Shown one piece after another: positions 2 to 64,000 of a stretch of DNA of 64,000 bases. Positions within the stretch are counted from its first letter, which is position 1. Every line of letters begins with the position of its first letter. Source of the DNA: an uncultured virus (IMG/VR IMGVR_UViG_3300010371_000035) (lineage: Duplodnaviria > Heunggongvirae > Uroviricota > Caudoviricetes); IMG/VR virus record IMGVR_UViG_3300010371_000035; one strand, given 5' to 3'. The translations under genes and the position numbers were made by a program. The notes beneath the pieces are model-generated. The model made no database searches and was not told the origin of the DNA. It saw only the letters and a list, made by a program, of their open reading frames with translations.

Positions 2-931
2 TTCATCGATCTGCTGGAGGGTGAAACCCTGCGCAATCGGCTGGCAACCGATGACCTCTTGGTCTACATGAAGACCCTGAACATGCGCGGCAAGATCGCC
101 GCCGGATCGAGCGCGTTCAACGAACTCCCCGGTGCCGATCTGTCGATGAACATGATCAGCGCGCCAACCTATCTCCTTCGCACTCGTGCGGAGTGGGATC
201 ATCACGACGTGGCGGCGGGCGGCCGCTGGGGTCTCGCGGTTCCGGAGGGCTATCGTCTGGCTCTTCGCCAGACCAACTACCAGCTCTGCCGTGACTTCGC
301 GCTCTATGGCGGCAAGCCGCAGTACGGTGAGGGCATCGTCAATGCTCCCGGCGCGACTGCGATCAACCTCCCGCCGGACAGCGGCGGGCACACCACCGCC
401 AGCACCTACGACAACGGCGAGATGGCCTTCTTCCTGATGCAGCTGATCCTGGGCCTCAAGACCAGGACCTATCAGCTGGGTCTCGGCAAGAAGTTCTCCA
501 TCGTCGGCCCGCAGCGCATCCTGGGACTCTTCGAATACAACGTCGTCCAGGTCACGCAGTTCCAGCGTCCCGGCGCTGGTACCGCTTCGACCAAGGAGAC
601 CTTCGAGGCAGTGCTCCAGGCCAACGGCGATCGGATCACTTGGGGGTACGACGATACTCTCCAAGGTCAGGGCGCCGGTGGAACGGATCTCGTCATCGTG
701 GATATGGCTGGCGTCGATCAGCCGTCCACTGGCGGAATCAACACCAACGTCTTTGCTGGGATTACGCCGGGCACTGGCGTCTGCGTGACTCAGTACTGCG
801 ACAAGGCCGCTCCCACGGAGATCATCTCCCCACTCCCTGCGGGTGCGACGGACATGGTCACCGAGTGGCGCATCTCGCCCGGCTGGGCACCGCGCCCTCA
901 GGCGGTGACTCTGCTGAGCATCGCGCCGTGA
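2..931 (+). CDS. Major capsid protein (5'-truncated by window edge)
   Basis: Frame is open from position 2 (FIDLLEGETLRNRL...). It is the first gene of a head-neck-tail operon, has strongly biased codon usage and is followed by a hairpin/T-run. Product inferred from position and resemblance to myovirus capsid proteins. Confidence 0.7.
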   Translation, partial: FIDLLEGETLRNRLATDDLLVYMKTLNMRGKIAAGSSAFNELPGADLSMNMISAPTYLLRTRAEWDHHDVAAGGRWGLAVPEGYRLALRQTNYQLCRDFALYGGKPQYGEGIVNAPGATAINLPPDSGGHTTASTYDNGEMAFFLMQLILGLKTRTYQLGLGKKFSIVGPQRILGLFEYNVVQVTQFQRPGAGTASTKETFEAVLQANGDRITWGYDDTLQGQGAGGTDLVIVDMAGVDQPSTGGINTNVFAGITPGTGVCVTQYCDKAAPTEIISPLPAGATDMVTEWRISPGWAPRPQAVTLLSIAP

Positions 932-26496: not shown

Positions 26497-27087
26497 TTAC
26501 GAACCTTCTCCGGATCGATCGCGCTCGCTTTTGGTCTTCGGCCATATACCCGCTTCCCTGTAGACGTCTCGATCTTCGGCAAACTCACCTCTAACGTTCT
26601 CTTCCTCCTTCGCATCGTATCCGAAGGGATGCTCTTGTTCGGTAGTGGGCTTGCGGCCTCCTTTGTCGTAGTCTCGCTTGACTCTCTGAGAAGGTTGCTC
26701 TTCGAGGACGTATCGGACATGATGCAATGCCTCTTCAATATCGGCCAATGTGCGCCACCGGAACAGTAGCTCAATGGCCTTGGCTGTATGTTCGTCTTTG
26801 ACTTTGTTGGCCGAACAGAACAATCCGATGCTTTCCACAGTCGGCACCATGGAAGCCCGATTCTTCCGTCTCCCCGCTTCTGTAAGTTCGATCAGCTTGG
26901 CGACGATATGCTGGGACTTCTCGAGGTCTTGAACCGGCATCCCTTTCTTATCCCATCGCACCAGATACTTGGTCGCATATCCTTCCAAATAGCCGATACC
27001 GTGGTCCTCGATAAAATCCCAGTGCTGGTACCGCCCAGCCTGCGAGTAGTGGTCCCCGCCAACCTGATAGTCATTCGCCTTAGTCAT
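26497..27087 (-). CDS. DUF3310 (SaV/T7 gp1.7-like) protein, putative nucleotide kinase
   Basis: QVGGDHY...YLEGYATKYLVRW.KKG...DLEK motif. Confidence 0.8.
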   Translation of the reverse strand: MTKANDYQVGGDHYSQAGRYQHWDFIEDHGIGYLEGYATKYLVRWDKKGMPVQDLEKSQHIVAKLIELTEAGRRKNRASMVPTVESIGLFCSANKVKDEHTAKAIELLFRWRTLADIEEALHHVRYVLEEQPSQRVKRDYDKGGRKPTTEQEHPFGYDAKEEENVRGEFAEDRDVYREAGIWPKTKSERDRSGEGS

Positions 27088-27613
27088 AAGTATCCTCCTG
27101 CATCAAGACTTGGAACACTTCGCGAACTTCTGAAGGCAACGTGATCTCGCGCATCTTCATCGTTGCTTTGTGGTAGGATTTTCTCACAAGCTGATTACCA
27201 GCCAACAGATTCTGACGAAGGAATATCCATGCGTCAAACAAATCTGCCGCTTTGAGCCAGCGCATGTCTTGTTCGTCTAGATCGTTCTCATTCCAGAGCT
27301 CGTGCGTGCTTAGGATTCCTCCTTCGGCAGCGTCAATGATTTCTCGAACACCTGGATAGTCTTTGAACCATCGAGGGATATCGCCTGTCACATATTCAGG
27401 CACATCGTGAACCATCGCCGCCAAGATCAATTGCTTGCCTGGATTTGGATGTAACAGCAGGATGATCATCACGACGTTCCAAGTGTGAGCCGCGATTGTC
27501 TCCTCACGGATCACATGTGTTCGAGCATGCCAACGACGGACCTGACCAGCATTGTAGCAAAACATAAGCCGATCTACAAGAAATCGGACTCTTGTTTCTT
27601 CTCTTGATGCCAT
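27080..27613 (-). CDS. HD-domain 5'-deoxynucleotidase/dNTP pyrophosphatase (YfbR-like)
   Basis: VRRWH...ETIAAHTW...HDVPEYVTGDIP...KAADLFD; start uncertain. Confidence 0.85.
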   Translation of the reverse strand: MASREETRVRFLVDRLMFCYNAGQVRRWHARTHVIREETIAAHTWNVVMIILLLHPNPGKQLILAAMVHDVPEYVTGDIPRWFKDYPGVREIIDAAEGGILSTHELWNENDLDEQDMRWLKAADLFDAWIFLRQNLLAGNQLVRKSYHKATMKMREITLPSEVREVFQVLMQEDTYD

Positions 27614-27739
27614 CTCCATACCCTCACTGCTATTGCTTTCGTCACCGATTCTGCATTGGCTGAGATCTGAATTATTCGATCCCAGCTTGGGCTCTGAAGA
27701 CTGTCCGTCTCGTAGATTACCCGACATAGCTCGTCTAAC

Positions 27740-28756
27740 TCACGTTTGGTTGGCTTTCGCATTCCTTGCCTCGATCCGATTATCGAACCATTGAAGGGCT
27801 GCCTCTTGCCAGTCAGGTGCAGCAATCTGCATCGCCCAGCTCCCGGCCTTCTCTGGATCTTTCTCATGCACGAACGCATGCCATGCACGATACATCGGTA
27901 CGGCAATTCTGGCAAAGAACGGTGTATGCCAATCGTCTACTTCTGGTCCTCCCATTGTATATTGATCTATGAAGAACTTGGCGTCTCGCTGCCATTGGCT
28001 GATCATATCCGCTTTCGGCAACACCATGATATGTGACGGGTCGATGCCAATCTCATTGTAAGGATCTGGCGGCATCGGCTGTACCTTGCCGATCAATTTC
28101 TTGGTGACGTCAAACTCGGTATAGATATGAAAGTTGCTGCTGATCTGCGCATAGTATCCGATCTCACATCCAATGGCTGTTGCAATATACTCCTGCAAAA
28201 AACTGAAATGCACGACATTGGCTCCGTAAGCGCCATAGAGCATATCGTTGCTTCGGTTGAATACTGTCATGTCCAACTGACCGTCTCGGACATAGAACGA
28301 GATGCCGGTATTGCACGGGATATCCTTGCCGTCTCGGAAGCAATCGTTCATCCAAAAGATCGGGATGTAAGCCCTCCGAGTGCTCTTATCGTTTTGCAGT
28401 CGGTTGATTATCGACGTCAGCACCTTACTCCAACGATAGCCATAGCTCGAGACGAGCGTGACACCATCGTCCGAATACTCCTGCATACGTTTGTTGAACT
28501 TGACCAACCACGCTACTTCATTTCGCCCGGCCAGCATCCAAATGGACTCGAAGAAATGGAAGAAAGGATTGCAGTCACGCACCTTGTCGAAGAGCACACG
28601 CTTCCTTGGCTCGAGAAAGATCGTTGTGACCGGAAAGATCGAGCGACGCACCGGGCCATTGCGCGAAGGCTCCTCGATGACCGGAGCATTCTTATCCCAC
28701 ATCATGTGCCACATGACAGGGAAGGCTTCGTTGATGTTGTTGAAGATATATTCCAT
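27740..28756 (-). CDS. Thymidylate-synthase homologue, probable dUMP hydroxymethyltransferase
   Basis: RNGPV, NPFFHFFESIWMLAGRN, YGYRW, KDIPCN (catalytic Cys), NRSND, and GANVVHFS with the dUMP-specifying Asn. Confidence 0.85.
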   Translation of the reverse strand: MEYIFNNINEAFPVMWHMMWDKNAPVIEEPSRNGPVRRSIFPVTTIFLEPRKRVLFDKVRDCNPFFHFFESIWMLAGRNEVAWLVKFNKRMQEYSDDGVTLVSSYGYRWSKVLTSIINRLQNDKSTRRAYIPIFWMNDCFRDGKDIPCNTGISFYVRDGQLDMTVFNRSNDMLYGAYGANVVHFSFLQEYIATAIGCEIGYYAQISSNFHIYTEFDVTKKLIGKVQPMPPDPYNEIGIDPSHIMVLPKADMISQWQRDAKFFIDQYTMGGPEVDDWHTPFFARIAVPMYRAWHAFVHEKDPEKAGSWAMQIAAPDWQEAALQWFDNRIEARNAKANQT

Positions 28757-28770
28757 GTCCGGTTCTCCTT

Positions 28771-29457
28771 CTAGATATACTGCCGTACGCCATCTTCTAA
28801 CTCAGCTAATTGATTCAAATCGTTCCAGCCCTTGTACTCTATCGCTCGACGGGCCTGCAGCTTGGGCATGCGAGCCAATGCCTCAGACAAATAGACATCT
28901 TCTGCATGTATAGACTGACACAAGTTAAACATATTGAGTAGATAGACGCCAGCCACGGCATCTTCTGAGATTGGTCGTTTCTCGGCTATCTCTAGAATAC
29001 GACCGACACCGTCCTTGCGAACGTAGGACCATCGTTCGTCATTCTTTTGCTTCGGTCGAAACGTGAACACGACACCTGGACATTTGTCGTAGTCCAAGCT
29101 CTGGATACCTTCGATGATGCTTTTGCGATCGATCACATTGTCACAGTTGCTGATCAGCACAAAGTTTCTAAGACGTGTTGTCCGTAGCCAACGATAGACC
29201 GTCTGCGCTTGGCCAGATGTCGGCTCGATGAAATGCACCACTGTTTCTCGTCCAAGCGGCGGACAGCCCATTTCACGTCGTACAGCAATCTCGACATCCA
29301 TCTCATCCGGAACCATATTGATTACTTCATTGATTGCCAACCAGTTCCGATCCTTCTCTTCGACATGGATAAACGGTTTTACTCCACGAGCCTTTACCCT
29401 CTCGCCCAGACCTGCAGCCGGGACGAACATCACGAAATCTTCCATGGTAAATCTCAT
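28771..29457 (-). CDS. Sugar/alcohol-phosphate nucleotidyltransferase
   Basis: PAAGLGER...KPFI, NCDN, WSYV....G.ILEIAEK.PIS..AVAGVY motifs. Confidence 0.85.
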   Translation of the reverse strand: MRFTMEDFVMFVPAAGLGERVKARGVKPFIHVEEKDRNWLAINEVINMVPDEMDVEIAVRREMGCPPLGRETVVHFIEPTSGQAQTVYRWLRTTRLRNFVLISNCDNVIDRKSIIEGIQSLDYDKCPGVVFTFRPKQKNDERWSYVRKDGVGRILEIAEKRPISEDAVAGVYLLNMFNLCQSIHAEDVYLSEALARMPKLQARRAIEYKGWNDLNQLAELEDGVRQYI

Positions 29458-30212
29458 AGCAATTCATCCTTCTTCTCGTAGAGCCAGGAACAGTAGTCGA
29501 TGTTGTCGTCGCAAATTTCCTTCTGCCAATCTTCCTTTGCCCGCACTTTGATCCGCATGAAGTGTACGGCACACCAGAATGGAGCCATGTGGCATTCTTT
29601 CATTATCGCTCGGACATGGGCAGCGTGGAATTTGGTGCGTTGCTGTGGACTGTTCTTATCCCATCCAATAAGGCTCTGCAGCAACTTACCGTAATCTACA
29701 TCCTTATGTGGCGGAATATAGTCATGCCGCTTTGCCTGCCAGTCTATGAATTTGTAGATCTTGGTGCGCTCGATCACGGTGTTCTCGTGCGTTAGATCTC
29801 CGTGAGTAAGACAAGCTGGAATATTCTCATAATACAATTGAAGGAACGGCAGAGATGGAAGGGTAATTTCATTCAACCATCCCTGAGACTCGATATACTC
29901 AAATGTCTTTCGCGCACTGTAGATCGGCGCGTTCTTATGGATCCACTTTTCGGGAATAAACCAATAGTTCTTCATCGAGGCTTCGGCTATCCGCCAATGC
30001 CATTCACGATAGATCGGAGGGCCCAAAGATTGTTTGATCGTTTCCATGACATAGCTTGACTTGCCCAGCCAGTAAATCCTAGGAACGTTCAGAGGCTGAT
30101 AGTCTCCGATCTCCAGCATCACCCGGCCTTGTTCGGCGACCAGTGGCGAGCCGCTCTTTACCGTAAAGAATGGCGTCACCAATATATTCTCTCCTGACAG
30201 GTTTCGCTTCAT
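29454..30212 (-). CDS. APH/choline-kinase-like phosphotransferase
   Basis: HGDLTHEN (Brenner motif), FIDW, D.DYGKLLQS. Confidence 0.85.
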   Translation of the reverse strand: MKRNLSGENILVTPFFTVKSGSPLVAEQGRVMLEIGDYQPLNVPRIYWLGKSSYVMETIKQSLGPPIYREWHWRIAEASMKNYWFIPEKWIHKNAPIYSARKTFEYIESQGWLNEITLPSLPFLQLYYENIPACLTHGDLTHENTVIERTKIYKFIDWQAKRHDYIPPHKDVDYGKLLQSLIGWDKNSPQQRTKFHAAHVRAIMKECHMAPFWCAVHFMRIKVRAKEDWQKEICDDNIDYCSWLYEKKDELL

Positions 30213-31075
30213 TCTCCTCTCCCTTGCTTTATCGCCTTCTTCCATGCCACCACGATCCGCTTTGGACCCAATCGTTCGGCATCCTCGGTACGTACGATAA
30301 CACGTACAATTCCTGGATGCAATTTTCCCATTAAGTCAGCACCGTCTGATATGATCTTCGAATTACGGCCGCTGGCAGTCTCTCCACCACTAGCATTGAA
30401 TCCTCGAGGATCGTTAGTCGCTCCCCACATATAGATTGCATTCTCAAATCCGGCCTCCAGCAACTGGAGCGTATAGTCTAAGTCCTCGAACATCCGCACG
30501 CGCCCCAGCTTGCATACTTCCATGACCGTAGGGACATGGTATGCTAGAGCATGTGTTGCTTTGTGATTGAGAATGAACTCGTGGCCGTGGACTTGATTCA
30601 TATATCGCTGGCTGATCCCGCCATGACGATAGTCGTCAAGCATCTCTTCTACACGGCGGAACATAGCACTAGTGGACTTATGGTTCGCATCGTGGATCCG
30701 GCCGTAACTCCGATCTTTCTTTACCATCTCAGGCCACGCTTTTGGATCGCCTTGCTGATACCCAGCGTAGCTCTTATGAACATGCAGACGGGTACTGAAT
30801 CGAAGATCGTCGTCAAGCACGAGTATCTTCTCATACCTCATCTCAGAAGCGTGGCGGAATATCCACGCTCGCTTGGCGGCGATGTTGGCGCAATCCCTTG
30901 GAGCGGGACAAGCTACTTCAAACGCATTTGGGAACATACGATGCAGAGCATGCATCTCGTCTCTTGGGCAGACAAGAGTCGTGCGTTCCTGCCATTCCAT
31001 TGGCAAGCCCGCCATCGTGATCTGATAATCGAGGCGCTTATGCGTCGGGACGTAGATCATCATTTCGCCGGTCAT
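30209..31075 (-). CDS. GT-A fold DNA glycosyltransferase (GREB1/TAGT-like) 1
   Basis: IYVPTHKR, IAAKRAWI, LVLDDD, EDLDYTLQLL, GG motifs. Confidence 0.8.
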   Translation of the reverse strand: MTGEMMIYVPTHKRLDYQITMAGLPMEWQERTTLVCPRDEMHALHRMFPNAFEVACPAPRDCANIAAKRAWIFRHASEMRYEKILVLDDDLRFSTRLHVHKSYAGYQQGDPKAWPEMVKKDRSYGRIHDANHKSTSAMFRRVEEMLDDYRHGGISQRYMNQVHGHEFILNHKATHALAYHVPTVMEVCKLGRVRMFEDLDYTLQLLEAGFENAIYMWGATNDPRGFNASGGETASGRNSKIISDGADLMGKLHPGIVRVIVRTEDAERLGPKRIVVAWKKAIKQGRGE

Positions 31076-31191
31076 GGGTCACCCATATCCTGTACATTGT
31101 CATAGCTGCTATCGCCAACACTAGATAGGTTATCATGGCCGCGGCCGCAGCCACGATCCCTAGGACAAACCCTGTCCAGAACGGATCCATG

Positions 31192-32061
31192 TCAGCCTAC
31201 CAGTCCTGTCTTACCAAGCTGGATGGCGTTCTGCCAACGTATGACTACCTCGGCACGCGGCGTACTGACGAGATAGTCTTTCTGTTTTACCTTTACCAGC
31301 CCCGGATGCAGCCGGGCCAGCTTATAGGCATCGGCATTGCTCGCCTTCATACTCCGTTCGAGACTGGCTCCTCCTTCGGCATTGTATCCTTCGTATTGCT
31401 CGACCACGACCCAGCAGTAGATAGCGTTCTCGAACCCTTTCTTCATAAGCTGGAGCGTGTAATCGAAATCCTCACGATGTTCGATCCGGCCCAGCTTGCA
31501 ATGCTTGATCACAGTTGGCACGTGATAAGCGTTGGCATACATAGACCGGCGGTTTAGCATGAACTCACCCCACATCTCTTGGTTCATGAGACGTGGGCCA
31601 AATCCTCCATGCCGATAGGTGTTTAGCATAGACTCGATGCGGCGAAACGCCAGATCGATCTTCGGGTCCTCGGGGTCTGAGCATTTGTAGAGCCCAGATG
31701 CTTCTGGATGTTTTTCACGATACGCTCGCCAATCCTTCGCCGTGCCTTTCTGAAAACCGGCAAACTGTTTGACGTACTCGTGGCGCGGGCAGAACGACAA
31801 GTCGTCGTCCAACATCATGATCTTTTCCTGTTTCAGACCCGCTGCGGTCTTAAAGATGAACGCTCGCTTCTGGGCAATCGACATCTTAGGATCAGGCTGC
31901 ATGATGCAAGCGCACGACGGCCAGTTCTTCAAATGCGCGTGCATCTCATCTTTCGGGCAAACGATCGTTGTCCGTTTGCGCCATGCCTCCGGCATGTTCT
32001 GCAAGGTCAGTTGGATATCGACCCTACCGCGCGTAGGGATATAGAGTCGCATGCCGCTCAT
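31192..32061 (-). CDS. GT-A fold DNA glycosyltransferase (GREB1/TAGT-like) 2
   Basis: LYIPTRGR, IAQKRAFI, MMLDDD, EDFDYTLQLM, GGAS..R motifs; paralog of the neighbouring gene. Confidence 0.8.
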   Translation of the reverse strand: MSGMRLYIPTRGRVDIQLTLQNMPEAWRKRTTIVCPKDEMHAHLKNWPSCACIMQPDPKMSIAQKRAFIFKTAAGLKQEKIMMLDDDLSFCPRHEYVKQFAGFQKGTAKDWRAYREKHPEASGLYKCSDPEDPKIDLAFRRIESMLNTYRHGGFGPRLMNQEMWGEFMLNRRSMYANAYHVPTVIKHCKLGRIEHREDFDYTLQLMKKGFENAIYCWVVVEQYEGYNAEGGASLERSMKASNADAYKLARLHPGLVKVKQKDYLVSTPRAEVVIRWQNAIQLGKTGLVG

Positions 32062-43137: not shown

Positions 43138-43423
43138 AACCTGTCCTCCTATAATAACCGCAGGCTCGAAAGGACGGTAGAGGAAAACCCGGCCTTCGAT
43201 TTCCTCCCACCCTGGACTCGTCTTAGAGCGACCACCGACGTCCCAAACTAGGAGTTAGCATCCAGTGCCATTGCCGCACGACACGACCACCGGAGAACCC
43301 GCGATACAAACCCAGCATAGCAAAACGCCCCGGTTCATGCAGCATGAACTGCACAGACCGGGGCGCCTGTTAGAGCAGACCGAGGAGGGGCGTCGGAACA
43401 GTCTGCTCTGTTATCCGATCGAA

Positions 43424-43789
43424 CTACGCCTTCACGCCGAGGAGCTTGGCCAGCGGCTTGAGCTTGGCGTCCTTCACGTCATCGTCGAACTTGGCGATCT
43501 TGACCTTCTTGAACGCGTCACGGATCTTGGCAACGTCATTCGGCTTCTTGGACATCGCCCTGATCTTCTCGACGATCTTGTCGCGAAGCTCCTGCATCGG
43601 GTCGGCTTCTTCACCTTCCTCACCCAGGAGGTCAGACCCGTCGCCCTCTTCCTCGGACGTCTCTTCTTCGGTCGTTTCCTCTTCGGGCTCGGTCTCCTCA
43701 GGAGCGGCACCGCGCGCTTCCAGCCACGTCTTGACCTGCTCGACGACTTCAGCTTCGTCGTCGCCTGTGAACATCACAGAAATACCCAT
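43424..43789 (-). CDS. Acidic protein typical of the head of DUF2800-DUF2815-PolA modules
   Basis: Glu-rich linker plus basic helical C-terminus; high-expression codon bias. Confidence 0.65.
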   Translation of the reverse strand: MGISVMFTGDDEAEVVEQVKTWLEARGAAPEETEPEEETTEEETSEEEGDGSDLLGEEGEEADPMQELRDKIVEKIRAMSKKPNDVAKIRDAFKKVKIAKFDDDVKDAKLKPLAKLLGVKA

Positions 43790-44318
43790 GGTCTTTCCTT
43801 TCACTCTGCAGAGAGGCATCTTTGCCTCGCCGACCATGGTGGCGATGGATGTTCTTCCGCGCAAGCTGAATTTGGCACCTTATATTCGCCCGCGCGAGCG
43901 CGCGATGCGCTCCTGTTGCTCTTTTATGAGCTGTTTCATCCGTTCTCTTCTCAATCTCGTCCGTTCCATTGTACGAATATGCGACACCATGGCCCGGAGC
44001 ACCATCATCCCATCCACCCTGTCAATTTCTTCTGCTATATGAAAGGCACTGGCAGCGCAGGGGATGCAGATCTTAAAATCTATTGTATTCAAATAATCTC
44101 GAGCTCTTTTTGGAAGATTGTCGAACTCTTGCATAACTTCTACTGGATCTACATACGACTGTATCATACATCCATAGATATTGGTCTGCTGGAGCAACGA
44201 GGCTGGAAAATCCGAGAGTTTCATATTTACTATCCTCCACCGCTTACCGCCGGTACCAACCGCAGTATGCCTGTATCTACTGGTCATATGCAATTAGAAC
44301 TTTACATTGCCAGGAAAA

Positions 44319-44347
44319 TTGCTGCCGGAAATATCGGCTGCTACAAT
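44319..44347 (+). promoter_or_regulatory. Sigma70-like promoter for primase-helicase
   Basis: TTGCTG-17 nt-TACAAT upstream of a GAGGAG RBS. Confidence 0.5.
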
Positions 44348-44380
44348 AAGGGTAAGAGGGCCGGAACGAAAGAGGAGAGA

Positions 44381-46570
44381 ATGACAGACTATCTTAAGAA
44401 ATACGGATTGACCGTTGTAAAGAACGGATGGCCGATTGTTCTACTTCCACATGGGAGCAAGAAACCAATTGGATTCAAATGGCAGGAGAAGGTTGTTACA
44501 GAGCACGACATCAAGCGAGCGCTCGCCTCCGGTAAGGAGTACGGGTTTGGGATCAAGTGCGGCAATGTGGTTGGGATAGACGACGATTACGAGGAGTCGG
44601 ACACTGTCACCGAAACGTTCCTCGATGCGGTCAAGGAGCTCAAGGACCATTACTTCCCGAAGTCGCTCTGGCGGCGTGGCCGTCCGACGCGACAACCACT
44701 CCGCGTTATTCGTCTCAAGGACGGGGAGGCCGCCAAGTCTCTCAATGTAGACAAGCTGCAGATCATCGGCAAGGGTCGTCAGTTCGTTGCCTATAACCTC
44801 CACCCCGATACAGGAGAATCGTATGTCTGGCTCAAAGGCGAAGACGAAGGCATCGGAAGCCCAGTCTCAATGCGATTCAAGGACATCCCCCAATACAGCA
44901 GAGCAGAGCTCGAGGGATTCTTGCAAGGGGTGCTCCTCCTCGAAGAAACCTTCGGACTGGCACCCGAACGAACAGGAGATGTTGTCCGCGCTATCAAGGC
45001 TGGTGAGCGTCCGAAGCGTGTCGCCGGGCTTTCTGCAGACCGAAAGCTGGTTGAGAAAGCATGCGAGTACATTGTGAACGATCCGAAGTGGGGATGGGAA
45101 GACTGGAATAACAACATCATGATGCCCCTCTACAACGCCAGCAAAGGCGAACCGTGGGGTTTGGAGCTTGCACATGCGCTATCGGCCCAGAGCGATCTCT
45201 ACGACGAAGCGACGACGGAAGAAAGATGGGAACAAATCGAGAAGCATCCAGCCGATCTACTCGGTTGGCCACGGCTCAATTGGCTGGCTCGACAACAGGG
45301 TATGCCTTTCCTCGGTCCGCTGGATTGGGACAACTACCGAGTCTTCATGGACCGCAAAGAAGTCCTTAATGTCACGAATAATCAGTGGATTATTTCTGAG
45401 AGGTTTAACGATCTGTTTGCAGATTATAAAGAGAAGAAACGCACGGTGATGCAAACGTTCGTAAAGAACCGTCCCGATCAAGTGTTCGACACGATTACGT
45501 GGGACAGCAGCCTGCCCAGCGGGATGGCCTCGAAGTCCGGACGTCGTCTTTGGAATACATGGGTGGCCCCGGACTGGTGGGGCGAACCGGGCGATATAAC
45601 GCCATGGCTTATCGTCATGGATAAGATCTTCGGAAATCTAATGCATCTGGTGATCAAACGGATGGCGTGTGACGTCCAGTATCCCGAAGTGCGGCCGCAA
45701 TGGCACATCCTTGTCACGGGAGAGAACGGCATCGGCAAATCGACAACATTCTATCCGCTTATGGAATGGGCCAAGCGATTCAACATGCACGCGCCTATCA
45801 CAACGAATATGATCAATGGCCCGTTCAATGCATGGATATCTCGTAAGAAGATCATAACGTTGAACGAAGTGGTTGGCATCACGTCAGCGCAATTCGACAA
45901 TCTGAAGGACATGCTGGCGGGCGGTGAGAGCGAAATAATGGTCAACGACAAGAACGTCAAGTTGGTGCCTGAACATCTTATTGCTTCGTTCTACTGTTCC
46001 AGTAACCATCGCAATGCGTTGTCGATCACAAAGACCGAGCGCAGGCTCTTGGTCCATCATAGTCAAGAGCCATCGCCCGAGAAGGGTAGCAAGGCATCGA
46101 AGGAAGCATATGATGCATTCCAATGGGTTAAACAGAACTGGCCTCGAGTGGTTCATCATCTGAAGCATGAAGTCAAAGTGTCCTCGGCGTTCGTGCAAGT
46201 TCATCCCGGTGTGACGGCTGGACAACGAGAAATGGCGGACATGACCGCCCCAGCGCACGAGCGTATCGCCGACAACATCCGCGAGATCATGCACAACGTC
46301 CCTGTCTTCGATATGCGGGACGTCGCCACCGCGTTGGCCATGGACGAGAGCAGCGTGGACGGCAGCATGATCAACAATGGCATGATCCGCAAAGCGCTAA
46401 GCCATCTAGGTGCTGTCCGTCTCAACAACGGCCGGTCTGTGAAGATCATCAACGGACATGGCGCAGAACAGAAACGGTTATGGTCCCTCGACCGCGAACT
46501 GGAAACGGCACCGAATGAACAAGTGCGATTCCTATACGAGACGTTCCGTAAAGATGAGAAGTACAGCTAG
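44381..46570 (+). CDS. Primase-helicase (Prim-Pol N-terminus, PriCT-2, SF3/DUF5906 helicase)
   Basis: GWPIVLL...KKP..W, GIDDD, GRQFVAY..HPDTG..Y.W; GENGIGKS Walker A; SSNH; GAGGAG RBS before ATG 44381. Confidence 0.9.
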   Translation: MTDYLKKYGLTVVKNGWPIVLLPHGSKKPIGFKWQEKVVTEHDIKRALASGKEYGFGIKCGNVVGIDDDYEESDTVTETFLDAVKELKDHYFPKSLWRRGRPTRQPLRVIRLKDGEAAKSLNVDKLQIIGKGRQFVAYNLHPDTGESYVWLKGEDEGIGSPVSMRFKDIPQYSRAELEGFLQGVLLLEETFGLAPERTGDVVRAIKAGERPKRVAGLSADRKLVEKACEYIVNDPKWGWEDWNNNIMMPLYNASKGEPWGLELAHALSAQSDLYDEATTEERWEQIEKHPADLLGWPRLNWLARQQGMPFLGPLDWDNYRVFMDRKEVLNVTNNQWIISERFNDLFADYKEKKRTVMQTFVKNRPDQVFDTITWDSSLPSGMASKSGRRLWNTWVAPDWWGEPGDITPWLIVMDKIFGNLMHLVIKRMACDVQYPEVRPQWHILVTGENGIGKSTTFYPLMEWAKRFNMHAPITTNMINGPFNAWISRKKIITLNEVVGITSAQFDNLKDMLAGGESEIMVNDKNVKLVPEHLIASFYCSSNHRNALSITKTERRLLVHHSQEPSPEKGSKASKEAYDAFQWVKQNWPRVVHHLKHEVKVSSAFVQVHPGVTAGQREMADMTAPAHERIADNIREIMHNVPVFDMRDVATALAMDESSVDGSMINNGMIRKALSHLGAVRLNNGRSVKIINGHGAEQKRLWSLDRELETAPNEQVRFLYETFRKDEKYS

Positions 46571-49217: not shown

Positions 49218-49424
49218 GCCCTGCATCCAATGTTTGCTGGGGTTTGTGGGGGCTTGTGCAATGGAAATATCTGTGCGACGATGTATGCCTCGCTGGTTTT
49301 AGACACTTCAGTCCCGTTCCCCTCGGGCTGCAGTGGTGGCCCTCCCAGTCGAAGCTCCTCCCATCGTATGCTCATCACTCCCCCTCGGTCTTGGGAGGGC
49401 CATTTCACGGAATGGAGTTTGGTC

Positions 49425-50273
49425 GTGGCCAGGACTAAGCAGAAGAAAACGATTCCTCCAAACAAATCTATTTCCAAGAAGGCGATTCCAAAGAAGGTTG
49501 TTCCGAAGAAACACAAGATATTCCCAAATCGCCCAGAGCCTGCTCGACTTACAATGATGGCCGCGCGGAATGTCGGGAAGCCATCAGATTATAAATCCCG
49601 TAATGATTATCTGCTGGCTCTTCGAGCTGAACGGTGGAGACTTCGTAAAGAATACGACACTAAGGATTTGATAGTGGAAGTTGAGAAGAGATTAAATCCT
49701 GGTGGTGTCACAGAATATAGAAAGGATTTTGCGCAAGTAGCTCGTCTTGTATGTTCCCTTTACGGTAGTACCCGAGGTGAGCTCGCCAAGTTCTTTCGAG
49801 TGTCTGAAAATACCATTACTCTATGGTTGCAGGAATATCCAGAATTTAATGCTGCTGTGAATGATCGTTCTACCGAGATGAATATTCAAATCATGCAACG
49901 TCTTGCGCGTCGCGCAATGGGCTTCTATGCTAATACGGAAAAGATATTCTACGATGTCAAACGTGGTGATGTAGTCCGCGTACCCACCAAGGAATACCAC
50001 CCTCCATCTGAGTCTGCGATTATGTTCTGGCTAAAGAACAGGATGCCTGAACATTGGAAGGATGTGAAACAAGTGGATGTGGATGAGACTCGTAAGCTCA
50101 CCATGGAGATCTACCGCAATTTCGATAACATGACTTCGGAGCAAGCGAGCGATGCCTACCAAGAGCTCCTTAAAATCGAGAGCGGCACCTTCCAAAAAGA
50201 AGACCGTCGCCAGACCCAGACCAAAGTTACAGACGTCGTTGACCTCGCCGCAAATTCAGGAAAAGACTCCTGA
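49425..50273 (+). CDS. Terminase small subunit
   Basis: ELAKFFRVSENTI..W...YPEF HTH; PPSESAIMFWLKNR.PE.WKD motif; GTG start after GGAG. Confidence 0.85.
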   Translation: MARTKQKKTIPPNKSISKKAIPKKVVPKKHKIFPNRPEPARLTMMAARNVGKPSDYKSRNDYLLALRAERWRLRKEYDTKDLIVEVEKRLNPGGVTEYRKDFAQVARLVCSLYGSTRGELAKFFRVSENTITLWLQEYPEFNAAVNDRSTEMNIQIMQRLARRAMGFYANTEKIFYDVKRGDVVRVPTKEYHPPSESAIMFWLKNRMPEHWKDVKQVDVDETRKLTMEIYRNFDNMTSEQASDAYQELLKIESGTFQKEDRRQTQTKVTDVVDLAANSGKDS

Positions 50274-52512
50274 TTCTCAATTCGTATTCGATTGGAAGCA
50301 TCCTGACTACCTGCCCATCATCCGTGCGCGTGTTGCTCGTCTGCGATACCTTCGTTCTGATCCTTCGAGGATGCGCGGCCTCCTTTCCTATTATAGGGAT
50401 GGTCATGTTGCGGATTTTATTAATGATTGGGGTGTGACATTCGATCCTCGTAATCTCGCGCTTAATCTGCCATCCAAGATCCCCTTCGTATTGTTCCCAA
50501 AGCAAAGGGAATGGGTGGATTGGGTCTGCAACTATCTGTGGAAGAACAACAAGGATGGACTCACAGACAAATCGCGTGAGATTGGTGTATCGTGGTTGGC
50601 GTGTGCGACGCTCGATTCATTGTGCATCCTGCACAACGGATTCATCGGAGGGTTTGGCTCCCGCAAACTCGAATACGTGGACAAGGCCGGAGATCCCAAA
50701 TCCCTCTTTTGGAAAGCGCGTGAGTACTTGGACAATCTACCGCTTGAGTTTAGAGCGGGATGGTCGCGTGAAACTGATGCGCATTGCAGGATTACATTCC
50801 CAATTACTGGCTCTGCAATTACTGGAGAAGCCGGTGACAATATCGGACGAGGAGATCGCACTTCGATTCATGTCGTGGATGAGGCTGCGTATATAGAACA
50901 TCCTGACGCTGTGGATGCTGCTCTTAGCCAGACCACGCGATGCAGGATTGATGTATCCTCTGCACATGGAATGGGAAACCCATTTGCACGCAAGAGACAT
51001 TCGTGGCCCGCAGATAGACTGATGACAATCCATTGGAGGGATGATCCACGTAAATCCGAGCAATGGTATCAGGAGCAGTGCGAGCGATATGATCCAATCG
51101 TTGTCGCACAGGAAATAGACATTAACTACATGGCCTCTGTGGAAGGTATTCTAATACCCTCGGCATGGGTGAATGCGGCCATTGACGCAGATAAGAAGCT
51201 GGGTCTGGATCTAGGCGGTAGAATCAAATGCGCTTTGGACATTGCCGACGAAGGCCCTGATAAGAATGCGTGGACTGCCGTACGGGGTGTGACGGTATTC
51301 AAAGCGGAGGATTGGAGCGGTGAAGCAAGTAATCTATACCGTACTCTCATGCGCGCCTTTCAATTGTGCGATTCTGTTGGATGTCAGGATCTGGTGTTTG
51401 ATTCTGACGGCATGGGTGTTTCCGTAAGAGGTGATTCTGAGGTTCTAAACAGCAATAGGTCAGACGAGCAGCAGATTAAGACCTATCCATTCCATGCATC
51501 TGGCAAAGTGCTGTATCCTGAACGTGAGGATGTGCAGGGCAGGCTCAACTCTGAAATGTATTCCAACGCTAAAGCTCAGGCATGGTGGCGTTTGCGAATC
51601 CGCTTTGAGAAGACATTCAAAGCTGTGATGAGTATGAAGGAACAGAATACTGAAGATTCCTCTTCACCCTTGAATTCATCTTCCGTTCCGGTATTTTCCT
51701 TTCAGCCTGAAGAGCTGATTTCGATTGACTCAAAGCTCGTGAATTTAGTACGTCTTCAACAAGAACTCGCGCAGGTAATCTATGGCTATTCGATGACTGG
51801 AAAGCTCCAGATCATCAAGGCCGAGGAGGGCATGGCGTCGCCCAATCTTGCAGACAGTCTCATGATGAACTTCGGAATAGAGACGGCTCCTCCGCTTCGC
51901 GTGCTTCAGCAAAACGAAATGATGCTAACTGCGGGATCTGGTGTGCCATTTCCCATCCATTGCGATTGCGTATTCGGAGTCATCACCGCCAATATGCGTC
52001 CGGGCCGAGACACTGACGGCGCGGCCGCAGTGTTCTGTGCACACAATATGAATGCTGTGCATCCGCTGATTGTTCTAGACTGGGATATCACCGAGATGAG
52101 TTCCCGCCTACTCGACGACTGGATGGCGGGCTGTTTCTACAAGTTGGAGGCGCTCGCCAATGCTGCAAATGCTGGATCGGGCTCGATGGGAATGTGGTTC
52201 GCGGACGATACGACCGGCAAGGTCTTCTTGAACCGTGCGGATCGCATGGGCTATCCGGCACAGGTGATTGAATCCGAATTGGACGATGTGAACCGTGCGC
52301 TCACTGTGTCCGGTGCGGTACGGGACGGCGTGGTCCAGCTCACACAGGAGTGCATCGAGAAGACACAGAATTTCAAGGGCATCACCAGAAACCATTTGAC
52401 TGGGCAGGTGGGTGAATTCACACCAGCCATGAAGGATCTCGACGGCAAGGTCGTGCTCAATGCGTTCACGCATGCGATAGCTCTGAGCAAGGGCAACGTG
52501 GATGGCTATTAG
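50152..52512 (+). CDS. terL: Terminase large subunit with extra C-terminal domain (true start possibly TTG 50239)
   Basis: KSREIGVSW (Walker A), VVDEAA (Walker B), LDIADEG.D, DSDGMG, SPNLADS. Confidence 0.9.
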   Translation: MPTKSSLKSRAAPSKKKTVARPRPKLQTSLTSPQIQEKTPDSQFVFDWKHPDYLPIIRARVARLRYLRSDPSRMRGLLSYYRDGHVADFINDWGVTFDPRNLALNLPSKIPFVLFPKQREWVDWVCNYLWKNNKDGLTDKSREIGVSWLACATLDSLCILHNGFIGGFGSRKLEYVDKAGDPKSLFWKAREYLDNLPLEFRAGWSRETDAHCRITFPITGSAITGEAGDNIGRGDRTSIHVVDEAAYIEHPDAVDAALSQTTRCRIDVSSAHGMGNPFARKRHSWPADRLMTIHWRDDPRKSEQWYQEQCERYDPIVVAQEIDINYMASVEGILIPSAWVNAAIDADKKLGLDLGGRIKCALDIADEGPDKNAWTAVRGVTVFKAEDWSGEASNLYRTLMRAFQLCDSVGCQDLVFDSDGMGVSVRGDSEVLNSNRSDEQQIKTYPFHASGKVLYPEREDVQGRLNSEMYSNAKAQAWWRLRIRFEKTFKAVMSMKEQNTEDSSSPLNSSSVPVFSFQPEELISIDSKLVNLVRLQQELAQVIYGYSMTGKLQIIKAEEGMASPNLADSLMMNFGIETAPPLRVLQQNEMMLTAGSGVPFPIHCDCVFGVITANMRPGRDTDGAAAVFCAHNMNAVHPLIVLDWDITEMSSRLLDDWMAGCFYKLEALANAANAGSGSMGMWFADDTTGKVFLNRADRMGYPAQVIESELDDVNRALTVSGAVRDGVVQLTQECIEKTQNFKGITRNHLTGQVGEFTPAMKDLDGKVVLNAFTHAIALSKGNVDGY

Positions 52513-53806: not shown

Positions 53807-54265
53807 TTAATTCCGTTTTCTCTTAGGTGAATCGAATAACTTCTCCACCGGCCAGCCCGAAGAGATTCTATCAGTAAGAGTCCGACAAGCTATTCCAGAA
53901 ACGCGCGAAGCCTCGCTTAGGATCATTCGGCCTTTGGGCGTTTCTATGTAGCGATTGAATCGCGTATTCTGCATTTGTTCCTTTTGTGTCACCCAGCGAC
54001 AGTTCTTAAGAGAATAAGGGCCGTCGTTATCCTTCCTGTCAAGTTTCAATCCAGGCTTGTAGCTGTCTTTCATATCTTCATAGAATTGCTCGAAATGATC
54101 CCATCGTGACGTGATCGTTATGCCTCGTCCTCCCCATTCAGAGTACTTGGGATATCTGGGCGAATTGCATCGACGGCGCATGTTGACCCATACTCGATAA
54201 AGAGGAGTAGCACACATCCCGTGTGTAGTGCGGGACCAAGTCTTGCGCTTCGACCAATCGGCCAT
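53807..54265 (-). CDS. HNH homing endonuclease
   Basis: HG....LY..W..MR.RC...GGRGI....RW..F..F..DM...LDRKDNDG.YS..NCRW.T..EQ..N. Confidence 0.9.
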   Translation of the reverse strand: MADWSKRKTWSRTTHGMCATPLYRVWVNMRRRCNSPRYPKYSEWGGRGITITSRWDHFEQFYEDMKDSYKPGLKLDRKDNDGPYSLKNCRWVTQKEQMQNTRFNRYIETPKGRMILSEASRVSGIACRTLTDRISSGWPVEKLFDSPKRKRN

Positions 54266-62641: not shown

Positions 62642-63064
62642 ATGGCTCGGAACGAAGCGCCGTATCCGGAGATTCTCCAAGAGCTCGTGAAACGGCTCAG
62701 CTATCGGAAGTGGCGCTTCACCCTCGGCCATATCGACCGCGGACAAGGTTCGGAAGGCTTGACCTTGATCATCACCACGGTTGGATATGACAGCTACAAC
62801 CCGGAAGATGGCGAGAACTACCGGGTGAATCACTACATGCCGGTACCTCCAGCGGCCTACAACGAACAGAGCTGGCGGCGTTGGCTCTTCGAGCAATGTC
62901 TGCTCGTCGAGAGACACGAGTGCTGTGAGTTCTTCAAGATCGATGGGAAGCGGCCCTATGCTCCCCACCACGGACCGGGCAACGACCCCTATATCGTCTT
63001 CGAACGCGGAAGCGACGAAGAGGCTAGGACCATGTATACTGGTGAGGTCCGCCCAAAGACGTAA
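62642..63064 (+). CDS. Conserved phage hypothetical protein
   Basis: WLF...L.VE.HE..EFF..DG.RP.APHH motif. Confidence 0.65.
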   Translation: MARNEAPYPEILQELVKRLSYRKWRFTLGHIDRGQGSEGLTLIITTVGYDSYNPEDGENYRVNHYMPVPPAAYNEQSWRRWLFEQCLLVERHECCEFFKIDGKRPYAPHHGPGNDPYIVFERGSDEEARTMYTGEVRPKT

Positions 63065-63165
63065 CCCAGGAGGCGATCATGTAGTTCCAACAAAGGAGGC
63101 CAATCCTGTTTCAGTTTCTCATCCTGTTACGATACCTCAAGAACATCCTTGCAAAGGTGAATAAA

Positions 63166-63408
63166 ATGGCTGGTGAACTTCAGGCACTTCAGAACGAAGT
63201 GGCGAACAACAACTCCGTTACCCAGAGCGCGGTGACCCTCCTGCAGGGCCTCAAGGCGGCTCTCGATGCGGCGATTGCGTCCGGCGACATGTCCCAGGTC
63301 CAGGCGCTGTCTGATCAACTGGCGTCTCAGGATCAGGCGCTCGCCGCTGCGGTGACCGCGAATACTCCGACCCCGCCGGAGCCCCCGGCTCCGCAGGGCC
63401 GTCGCTAG
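63166..63408 (+). CDS. Small coiled-coil protein
   Basis: Heptad pattern ending AAAVTANTP; biased codon usage. Confidence 0.65.
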   Translation: MAGELQALQNEVANNNSVTQSAVTLLQGLKAALDAAIASGDMSQVQALSDQLASQDQALAAAVTANTPTPPEPPAPQGRR

Positions 63409-64000
63409 TTCGATGAAGTGACGTAGGGGGAGGGGGCAGTGCTCCTTCCCTTTACGTTCGTCTTTAGAACGCAAAGCGATAGGAAGATCCCAATCGCCAT
63501 GCCGAGTAGGAGCATCCGAAAAGGCATCACAGATTCCCTTCTACCAGATAATAGGTCATCATATCCGAGATTCGGATAAGGACCATGCCGATGAGAACAC
63601 CGGCGGCGAAGGTGACAATCATCCATTTCCAGGAGAACATGGCTACCTCCGGTTCCGAAATATTCTGGAAAACCGAAACCAAAATCGGAGCCAGCGTGGT
63701 GTCTCGATCCACATAGTGCCGACATGGCCGTAGTGCGGATCTCCTGTCATTCTTCTAGCCTTGAAACATCCGGTGAACTTGGTGTAATCACATTGTTCCG
63801 GCTTACCGCCGCCACAGTAGATGCAATGTTTCATCGTTGCCTCCTGGTAGAAAAAGACCGGTCGCGCGATCACCCGGCTGAGGTTGGATCGCCACCGGCT
63901 CTCGTCTTTGGGGAAAACGAGCCTCACTGCAGGAACCTTCGGGGGTGGGACTGTCAGGGTCCCTGCAGCACGTTCTAAATTGATAAAAGAAAGACGGAGA

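Follow-up and report, generated by a model that had tools for sequence, protein, structure and literature searches.

A phage terminase large subunit that joins a complete terminase to a second, predicted inactive nuclease domain of another terminase lineage

The 64,000-nucleotide (nt) stretch of DNA analysed here (IMG/VR virus record IMGVR_UViG_3300010371_000035, from an uncultured tailed phage; hereafter the window) encodes a terminase large subunit (TerL) of 786 amino acids (aa) that is built from parts of two terminase lineages. We use lineage 1 for the Sf6/Magia type, to which aa ~44-575 belong, and lineage 2 for the type from which aa ~589-786 descend. Judged from its sequence, the first part is a complete, apparently active TerL, and the second is a nuclease domain that is CATALYTICALLY dead but conserved. 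This structural and evolutionary description we hold to be very nearly certain. As to function, comparative evidence suggests that the dead domain probably docks the borrowed motor onto the phage's own lineage-2 portal. The open reading frame (ORF) and its parts are the following.

50152..52512 (stop included), + strand: TerL ORF, one uninterrupted ORF of 786 aa with a three-domain architecture
50281..51150, + strand: lineage-1 ATPase domain, aa ~44-333 (tblastn and Foldseek)
51151..51876, + strand: lineage-1 live nuclease domain, aa ~334-575, ending in SPNLADSLMM (phmmer and Foldseek)
51877..51915, + strand: junction and linker, aa 576-588
51916..52509, + strand: second, predicted catalytically dead nuclease domain of lineage-2 type, aa 589-786

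An earlier note on this DNA had proposed that the ATPase and nuclease are complete by the motif SPNLADSLMM (aa 563-572, nt 51838-51867), beyond which 214 residues follow. This was borne out by PHROG, tblastn and phmmer. The match to the TerL family phrog_2 was limited to aa 31-574 (expect value (E) 2.3e-19). A tblastn search against phages returned 960 records, none of which covered at least 80% of the 786-aa query, and the 30 matches listed all stopped at aa 574-599. The closest phage TerLs, 44-49% identical over aa 44-575, were those of Magia and BcepB1A (Burkholderia), IFTN9 (Bordetella) and vB_EcoM-683R1 (E. coli). The Magia TerL has 531 aa, and its stop lies 16 codons past the end of the match to the window TerL. 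Likewise, 40 unfused lineage-1 relatives in a 66-row alignment ended 11-50 aligned residues beyond aa 575, mostly 13-25. Sf6 gp2 and the TerLs of E217 and Magia thus resemble aa 44-575 in their ATPase-plus-nuclease build and in their acidic motifs; this type ends 11-50 residues past the SPNLAD motif, whereas the window TerL departs from the two-domain build, with 211 aa after aa 575 that add a domain of ~200 aa.

Comparison with solved structures gave the same boundaries. With phmmer against the PDB, aa 338-573 matched the E217 TerL nuclease (E 2.7e-20) and aa 290-574 matched Sf6 gp2 (E 8e-13; the Sf6 gp2 nuclease alone, E 2.8e-10), with no match past aa 575. The acidic motifs aldiADeGpD, vfDsDGmG and SPNLADsLMM were common to the window TerL and to the E217 and Sf6 nucleases in these phmmer alignments, and the three motifs were invariant across the fused family described below. 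Foldseek placed the AlphaFold2 (AF2) model of the full-length protein with Sf6 gp2 (4idh, E 7e-24) and the lineage-1 nuclease with the E217 and Sf6 nuclease domains (8dkr and 5c12, TMt 0.82-0.86).

The ~200 aa that follow had been read in the earlier note as the nuclease domain of a different TerL lineage, and this reading was upheld when the two parts were searched separately: lineage-1 matches were returned for the N part and lineage-2 matches for the C part. Used alone in tblastn, aa 577-786 matched 14 phage records (E 9e-33 to 1e-14, 27-38% identity), namely Shewanella QDWS and its duplicate, five from Yersinia, three from Klebsiella, one from Actinobacillus, E. coli Rac-SA53 and two from Pantoea. 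In the three records that were opened, the match was the C-terminal half of an annotated TerL of 424-443 aa directly upstream of the portal, and two of these three TerLs had Terminase_6N in their N half. Lineage-2 TerLs are 420-530 aa long. A phmmer search of the C domain against 1.84 billion representatives gave 244 matches at E <=1e-3.

The predicted fold agreed. AF2 modelled the C domain (66-row alignment) with a mean predicted local distance difference test score (pLDDT) of 92.3 and a predicted template-modelling score (pTM) of 0.90. Its best Foldseek matches were HSV (herpes simplex virus) pUL15, D6E, PhiV-1, HCMV (human cytomegalovirus) UL89, RB49 gp17, SPP1 G2P and G20c, with E values from 1e-5, and RuvC ranked below the terminase nucleases and whole terminases. 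The homology to lineage 2 begins at about aa 589-591, in a zone where the full-length model drops below a pLDDT of 50 (aa 580-583 and 592-594). The two parts are thus separated by a flexible linker of ~25 aa that is modelled with low confidence. According to these models, aa ~589-786 are an RNase H-like terminase nuclease domain, with its inter-domain linker, from a second TerL lineage. The linker, fold core, RNHL motif, C-terminal tail and capsid lineage are common to it and to the lineage-2 TerLs whose nuclease half is homologous to aa 589-786 (Shewanella vB_Sb_QDWS UEP18781.1, 424 aa; Klebsiella vB_Kpn_Chronis gp1; Yersinia vB_YenM_29.18). In the latter, however, the domain stands behind its own Terminase_6N ATPase and has the catalytic residues D/E/D, whereas in the window TerL it stands behind a complete foreign TerL and has T/A/N. 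We also considered an internal start that would yield the C domain as a product of its own: M589-M590 provide two ATG codons, and no Shine-Dalgarno-like purine run was seen ahead of them.

The loss of the catalytic residues was assessed by alignment to the lineage-2 motifs, in which the triad consists of the D of xIDTA, the E of IEDK and the last D of DDLLDxF. The window has VITAN, FADD and KVVLNAF in their place, so that the replacements pointed out in the earlier note (VITA for VIDT, FADD for IEDK, KVVLNAF for DDLLDTF) agree with the alignment. The three codons are these.

51985..51987, + strand: codon T612, site of the first catalytic Asp (xIDTA)
52201..52203, + strand: codon A684, site of the Glu in IEDK, with the neighbouring D685 present
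52459..52461, + strand: codon N770, site of the last catalytic Asp (DDLLDxF)

Among the 19 sequences that have the same fusion as the window TerL (group A), D612 was kept in none (T, V, A, S, C or F instead), E684 in two (otherwise A, K, P, Q, V or M) and D770 in none, N being present in all 19. The first D of DDLLDxF, D767, was also absent from all 19 (V767 in the window), and Y774 was replaced by H throughout the group. Such a state sets these proteins apart from most carriers of the domain: 119 of the 150 representatives listed had all three sites aligned, of which 91 were D-E-D and 28 were not, and among 131 aligned loci, 116 were D-E-D, 8 had alignment gaps and the seven fused ones were all non-acidic at the first and last sites. 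The "live" set used for comparison was chosen by D-E-D, and its 100% at the three sites is by construction.

The remainder of the domain is retained. In group A, residues of the fold core (P601, L642, D643, W644, D645, W657, G677, G680, G689, I706, R715, A716 and S720) were kept at 84-100%, as were N747, H748 and Q752 of the RNHL..Q motif. The C-terminal G..G[YF] tail was retained as well (G781 in 83%, G785 in 93%). The KGxxRNHLxxQ motif, to which N747, H748 and Q752 belong, was 96-100% conserved, whether the domain was live or dead. For the five pairs in which synonymous divergence (dS) was unsaturated, the ratio of nonsynonymous to synonymous substitution (dN/dS, Nei-Gojobori) of the dead domain was 0.114, 0.16, 0.147, 0.099 and 0.071, like that of the N part (0.067-0.18). 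Since these values (0.07-0.16) indicate purifying selection, the domain would have lost its catalysis and not its function.

The fusion is real, old and stable, and it is a trait of a family. The earlier note had asked for a check of the junction at 51870-51930, and Logan contigs of three out of four other runs bridged it with 0 differences, so that an assembly artefact is ruled out; the contig of the fourth run begins at 51871. The C-domain search returned further full-length fused proteins (P0003, P0006, P0007 and P0008, 698-790 aa) and fragments, and fused loci were found in several metagenomes (seven: L004, L005 and L015-L019). At least 12 distinct full-length fused relatives are known to us, down to ~48% N-part identity (P0055). 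Besides the window's own protein, the nine nearest relatives of the N part (56-78% identity) were all fused and 698-790 aa long, and the other N-part relatives listed (526-586 aa) were unfused and at most 53% identical, with the exception of P0231, fused at 51%. In a FastTree of 52 N parts, in which the 40 unfused relatives are a sample out of thousands, the 12 fused rows lay on one side of a branch with a support value of 99.

The TerL ORF is preceded by the gene for the terminase small subunit (TerS).

49230..50273, + strand: TerS ORF, phrog_309 TerS (E 3e-23, aa 157-320), start uncertain

This TerS is of the CUS-3/HU1 type by tblastn, and direct comparison found no similarity to the Magia TerS or to a Yersinia lineage-2 TerS. 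The ORFs for TerS and TerL share 122 nt, which they read in different frames. Because of this overlap, because aa 1-41 are disordered in the AF2 model of the full-length TerL (pLDDT 87.9, pTM 0.58), and because the window TerL is also recorded in a 757-aa form that starts at aa 30 (P0002), the true TerL start probably lies downstream of 50152. The pTM of only 0.58 means that the relative placement of the domains in this model is not fixed. A Pfam scan at E 1 or below gave no family for the whole 786-aa protein or for its C part, and no intein, Hint or LAGLIDADG match in the whole protein.

The lineage of the second domain was compared with that of the head module, to which the following gene of the window belongs.

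2..931, + strand: major capsid protein, its 5' end cut by the window start (phrog_6671, E 8e-100)

A tblastn search with this capsid protein returned 14 phage records, exactly the 14 matched by the dead domain. No portal lies inside the 64-kb window. The public viral contig IMGVR_UViG_3300005337_000071 (15,273 nt; our L302 and L300) bridges the window end to the window start, with 100% identity over the window's last 1043 nt (62958-64000) and 98.97% over its first 291 nt (1-291), and it closes a circular map of 64,000 + 13,939 nt, ~77.9 kb. In the 13.9-kb gap, the bridging contig has genes in this order: portal, SPRY-domain protein (621 aa), small ORFs, NUDIX-fusion protein (680 aa) and scaffold-like protein, with the capsid gene next. 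Two loci whose capsid proteins are 51-63% identical to that of the window (L009 and L012) have ordinary TerLs of 510-533 aa whose lineage-2 nuclease is live; downstream of these lie a Phage_portal_3 portal, a NUDIX-fusion protein, a scaffold-like protein and the capsid gene. The portal of the window phage (522 aa, L300:339-1907) shares 45% identity with that of L012. In the L019 locus the TerL is fused (854-aa ORF, 54% identical, with CKN as triad residues), and a portal with 46% identity to that of L012 follows 0.7 kb downstream. Unfused lineage-2 TerL loci with at least 2 kb of downstream sequence, counted without deduplication, had this portal type within 1.5 kb in 74 of 87 cases and farther away in 7. 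Searches of the window and the bridging contig, that is, of the ~78-kb map, found no second TerL of either lineage and no lineage-2 ATPase. The lineage of the dead domain is therefore that of the capsid and portal, which backs the suggestion of the earlier note that a foreign terminase displaced the native one, the C-terminal domain of the latter being kept.

We propose the following origin and role. An ancestor with a lineage-2 head module would have taken up a foreign TerS-TerL pair, and an in-frame fusion would have linked the incoming TerL to the 3' half of the resident one, whose ATPase half would have been lost. The resident nuclease domain would then have lost catalysis and stayed under purifying selection. 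In the present enzyme, the lineage-1 part would perform ATP-driven translocation and DNA cutting, DNA recognition would be provided by its own TerS, and the dead domain, together with the conserved tail at its C-terminus, would recognise and dock on the lineage-2 portal, as a built-in adaptor between a foreign motor and a native head. We consider this docking role probable.

Known systems described in a 2026 review (PMC13595956) offer partial parallels. The TerLs of lambda (gpA), T3 (gp19), SPP1 (G2P) and P22 (gp2) bind the portal via their C-terminus, which is the function proposed here; in these four, portal specificity lies in a short tail of their own nuclease domain, whereas in the window TerL a whole extra domain of other descent would serve. 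In stalled HK97 motors, a nuclease domain touches the portal (PMC13595956). The vestigial nuclease domain of the phi29 packaging ATPase gp16 is inactive and serves the motor structurally (PMC13595956), and it resembles the second domain of the window TerL in having a terminase nuclease fold without catalysis; yet phi29 is without any active nuclease and needs none, while the window chain holds a live and a dead nuclease of different lineages.

Several observations weigh against the docking role or against parts of its premises. The lineage-1 portals (Magia, vB_EcoM-683R1) and the lineage-2 portals both belong to Pfam Phage_portal_3, so that the foreign TerL may have needed no help in docking. 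The two sets of portals do differ in score (354-388 bits for lineage 1 versus 36-76 bits for lineage 2), and the pairwise match between the Magia and L012 portals was not significant (E 0.022). The portal of the window phage starts ~15.8 kb downstream of the terminase genes, L005 has no portal within 9.4 kb of them, and L019 alone preserves the gene order that a replacement in place would leave. In addition, 6 of the 87 lineage-2 TerL loci have no such portal in their flank, and in the two of these that were inspected an integrase or transposase takes its place. The T4 model puts the ATPase domain, not the nuclease domain, on the portal. Finally, some acidic residues persist in the second domain, with 84% of the fused family retaining D685 and 84-95% retaining D622, D643 and D645. 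A prediction, run without controls, of the complex between the L019 portal (402 aa, its 3' end cut) and the L019 dead domain scored 0.30 against a mark of 0.32 and tips the balance neither way.

The two inspected loci deserve a word of their own. In L065 (11599-13344) and L071 (14665-15681), a serine integrase or transposase follows a live lineage-2 TerL, and the same TerLs are preceded by a ParB-methyltransferase fusion. Loci of this type may be prophage ends or satellite-like elements.

We considered the possibility that the dead domain is kept for a job on the DNA side or in regulation rather than for docking. It could provide an extra grip on the DNA or act as a valve, roles that have been proposed for the vestigial phi29 domain; alternatively, it could work together with the live nuclease to set the time of headful cleavage. 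The inactive nuclease domain of phi29 retains DNA binding (PMC13595956), the pTM of the full-length model leaves room for such arrangements, and the conservation of KGxxRNHLxxQ in live and dead domains indicates that selection acts on some function of the fold other than catalysis. Yet a DNA-side role would leave unexplained why the dead domain follows the lineage of the capsid and portal and not that of the live motor, and why the extreme C-terminal tail is retained. We therefore regard it as unlikely.

It is much less probable that the second domain is still a nuclease, acting through relocated acidic residues or a different chemistry. The four retained aspartates named above could be taken in its favour, and pseudoenzymes with migrated catalytic residues are known (PMC10211241). 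However, at two of the triad positions none of the 19 sequences has an acidic residue, and at the third 17 lack one; the hypervariability of positions 612 and 684 argues for released constraint and not for a new active site, and D622, D643 and D645 show the same conservation in live domains.

TerL is a known target of Avs proteins. The extra domain might be a shield or decoy against host sensors of terminase folds, such as Avs-type nucleotide-binding leucine-rich repeat proteins (NLRs), and a solved Avs3-terminase complex (8dgc) was among the structural neighbours found by Foldseek. We give this idea still less credence, as there was no defence-related context, the live ATPase and nuclease would remain exposed on the same chain, and the lineage match to the head module would be unexplained. 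Mosaicism at terminase genes is common in phages, yet a neutral recombination remnant or an assembly chimera is the least credible account of all, given the low dN/dS of the dead domain, an architecture kept in at least 12 proteins and 7 loci down to ~48% N-part identity, and contigs from three of four runs that cross the junction without differences.

Other terminases are built in the same way. A Pfam scan of 29 C-domain matches, 26 of them at least 600 aa long, separated two kinds of long protein. Those with a live triad had intein, Hint or LAGLIDADG matches in 13 of 16 cases (P0036 and P0092 gave Terminase_6N only; P0040 and P0087, no family). Those with a dead triad carried a second nuclease just upstream. 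Intein-containing TerLs are also unusually long and end in the same nuclease domain; they differ, however, in owing their length to a Hint or LAGLIDADG insert within the ATPase domain and in having a live nuclease, whereas the window TerL gave no intein match. Terminase_6C preceded the dead domain in P0021, P0024, P0047, P0131 and P0120, and P0081 carried the end of a lineage-1 nuclease. Among the N parts of the double-nuclease proteins, at least four groups without relation to one another could be told apart (A, that of the window TerL; B, P0021, P0024, P0047 and P0131; C, P0037; D, P0156, P0120, P0142 and P0076), plus P0144. For some double-nuclease proteins of the Terminase_6N/6C type, the nearest unfused relatives were in alphaproteobacterial genomes.

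These N-part groups showed no one-to-one match to clusters of the C domain. P0131 has an N part of group B and a C domain that pairs with that of P0037 (support value 98), and P0081 has an N part of group A and a C domain that sits with group D. In a quick tree of the C domains, with many open forks and long branches, two changes between the labels dead and live sufficed. Either there were a few inactivations, or an old dead domain was re-partnered repeatedly. A scan of viral contigs with group B returned 80 ordinary TerLs and none with a dead domain; a scan of genome contigs with group D returned two short contigs (L220 and L221) that carry the dead domain and stop short of the downstream portal region.

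Two further kinds of protein bear on how these domains are exchanged. P0033 (519 aa) and P0041 (456 aa) join a lineage-1-like ATPase (45% identity to aa 44-326 and 35% to aa 110-328, respectively) to a live lineage-2 nuclease; they are hybrids in which only the ATPase has been swapped. In P0023 (191 aa) and P0028 (193 aa), a Met stands exactly at the start of the domain, and the triad sites hold Y/E/R and Y/E/N. P0054, P0090, P0150 and P0155 likewise have 191-212 aa, begin with a Met where the nuclease domain starts, and lack at least one triad residue. These six may be stand-alone dead nuclease domains or fragments of gene calling. When relatives of the putative stand-alone domains were sought, every match was an ordinary TerL with a live site, at 36-45% identity.

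We tentatively extend the docking proposal to a general one, in which a dead TerL nuclease would be a portable portal adaptor: a phage that swaps its motor would carry the old nuclease domain over, as a pseudoenzyme, to the C-terminus of the new TerL, and this domain alone would determine the portal on which the motor docks; this broader claim we hold with less confidence than the docking role itself. The same solution may lie behind the at least four unrelated TerL types, and the stand-alone P0023 and P0028 may be a split version of it.

The genome that carries the window TerL comes from soil and rhizosphere metagenomes, and the window is part of its ~78 kb. On the + strand, 1-17 kb hold structural genes, including those for capsid, sheath and baseplate; on the - strand, 24-42 kb hold replication and nucleotide-modification genes; and a + strand block of 43-52.5 kb has TerS and the 786-aa TerL ORF at its end. 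This block opens with a primase-type protein of 1101 aa (43265-46570, +; phrog_1156 and phrog_1829), and a sign change of the GC skew at ~44 kb coincides with its start. An HNH endonuclease (53807-54265, -; phrog_3377, E 7e-46) lies 1.3 kb past the TerL stop on the opposite strand; some terminases get help in cutting DNA from HNH proteins. A gene cluster at 26497-32061 (-) suggests hypermodified DNA and includes the following.

26497-27087, - strand: nucleotide kinase-like gene
27080-27727, - strand: dNTP hydrolase-like gene
27740-28756, - strand: thymidylate-synthase-family gene
30209-31075 and 31192-32061, - strand: two beta-glucosyl-HMC-alpha-glucosyltransferase-like genes

In the 2026 review (PMC13595956), TerL is described as a two-domain protein and the small number of portal-TerL structures is stressed. 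A full-text literature search, whose coverage left out subscription journals, turned up no report of an additional, inactive nuclease domain in a TerL. Which part of TerL contacts the portal, and what makes a motor specific for a head, is still argued from few model phages. The fused family amounts to a natural domain-swap experiment, in which a complete foreign motor is combined with a silenced native nuclease that tracks the lineage of the capsid and portal. If the docking role holds, the nuclease domain and not the ATPase domain would be the specificity module; this would explain how a phage can change its packaging enzyme, and with it TerS and the pac or cos strategy, and yet leave the head as it is, and it would provide a design rule for hybrid packaging systems. 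The family also gives phage biology a clear pseudoenzyme case. In annotation, TerLs of ~700-850 aa are either intein-bearing, with a live nuclease, or double-nuclease proteins with a dead one.

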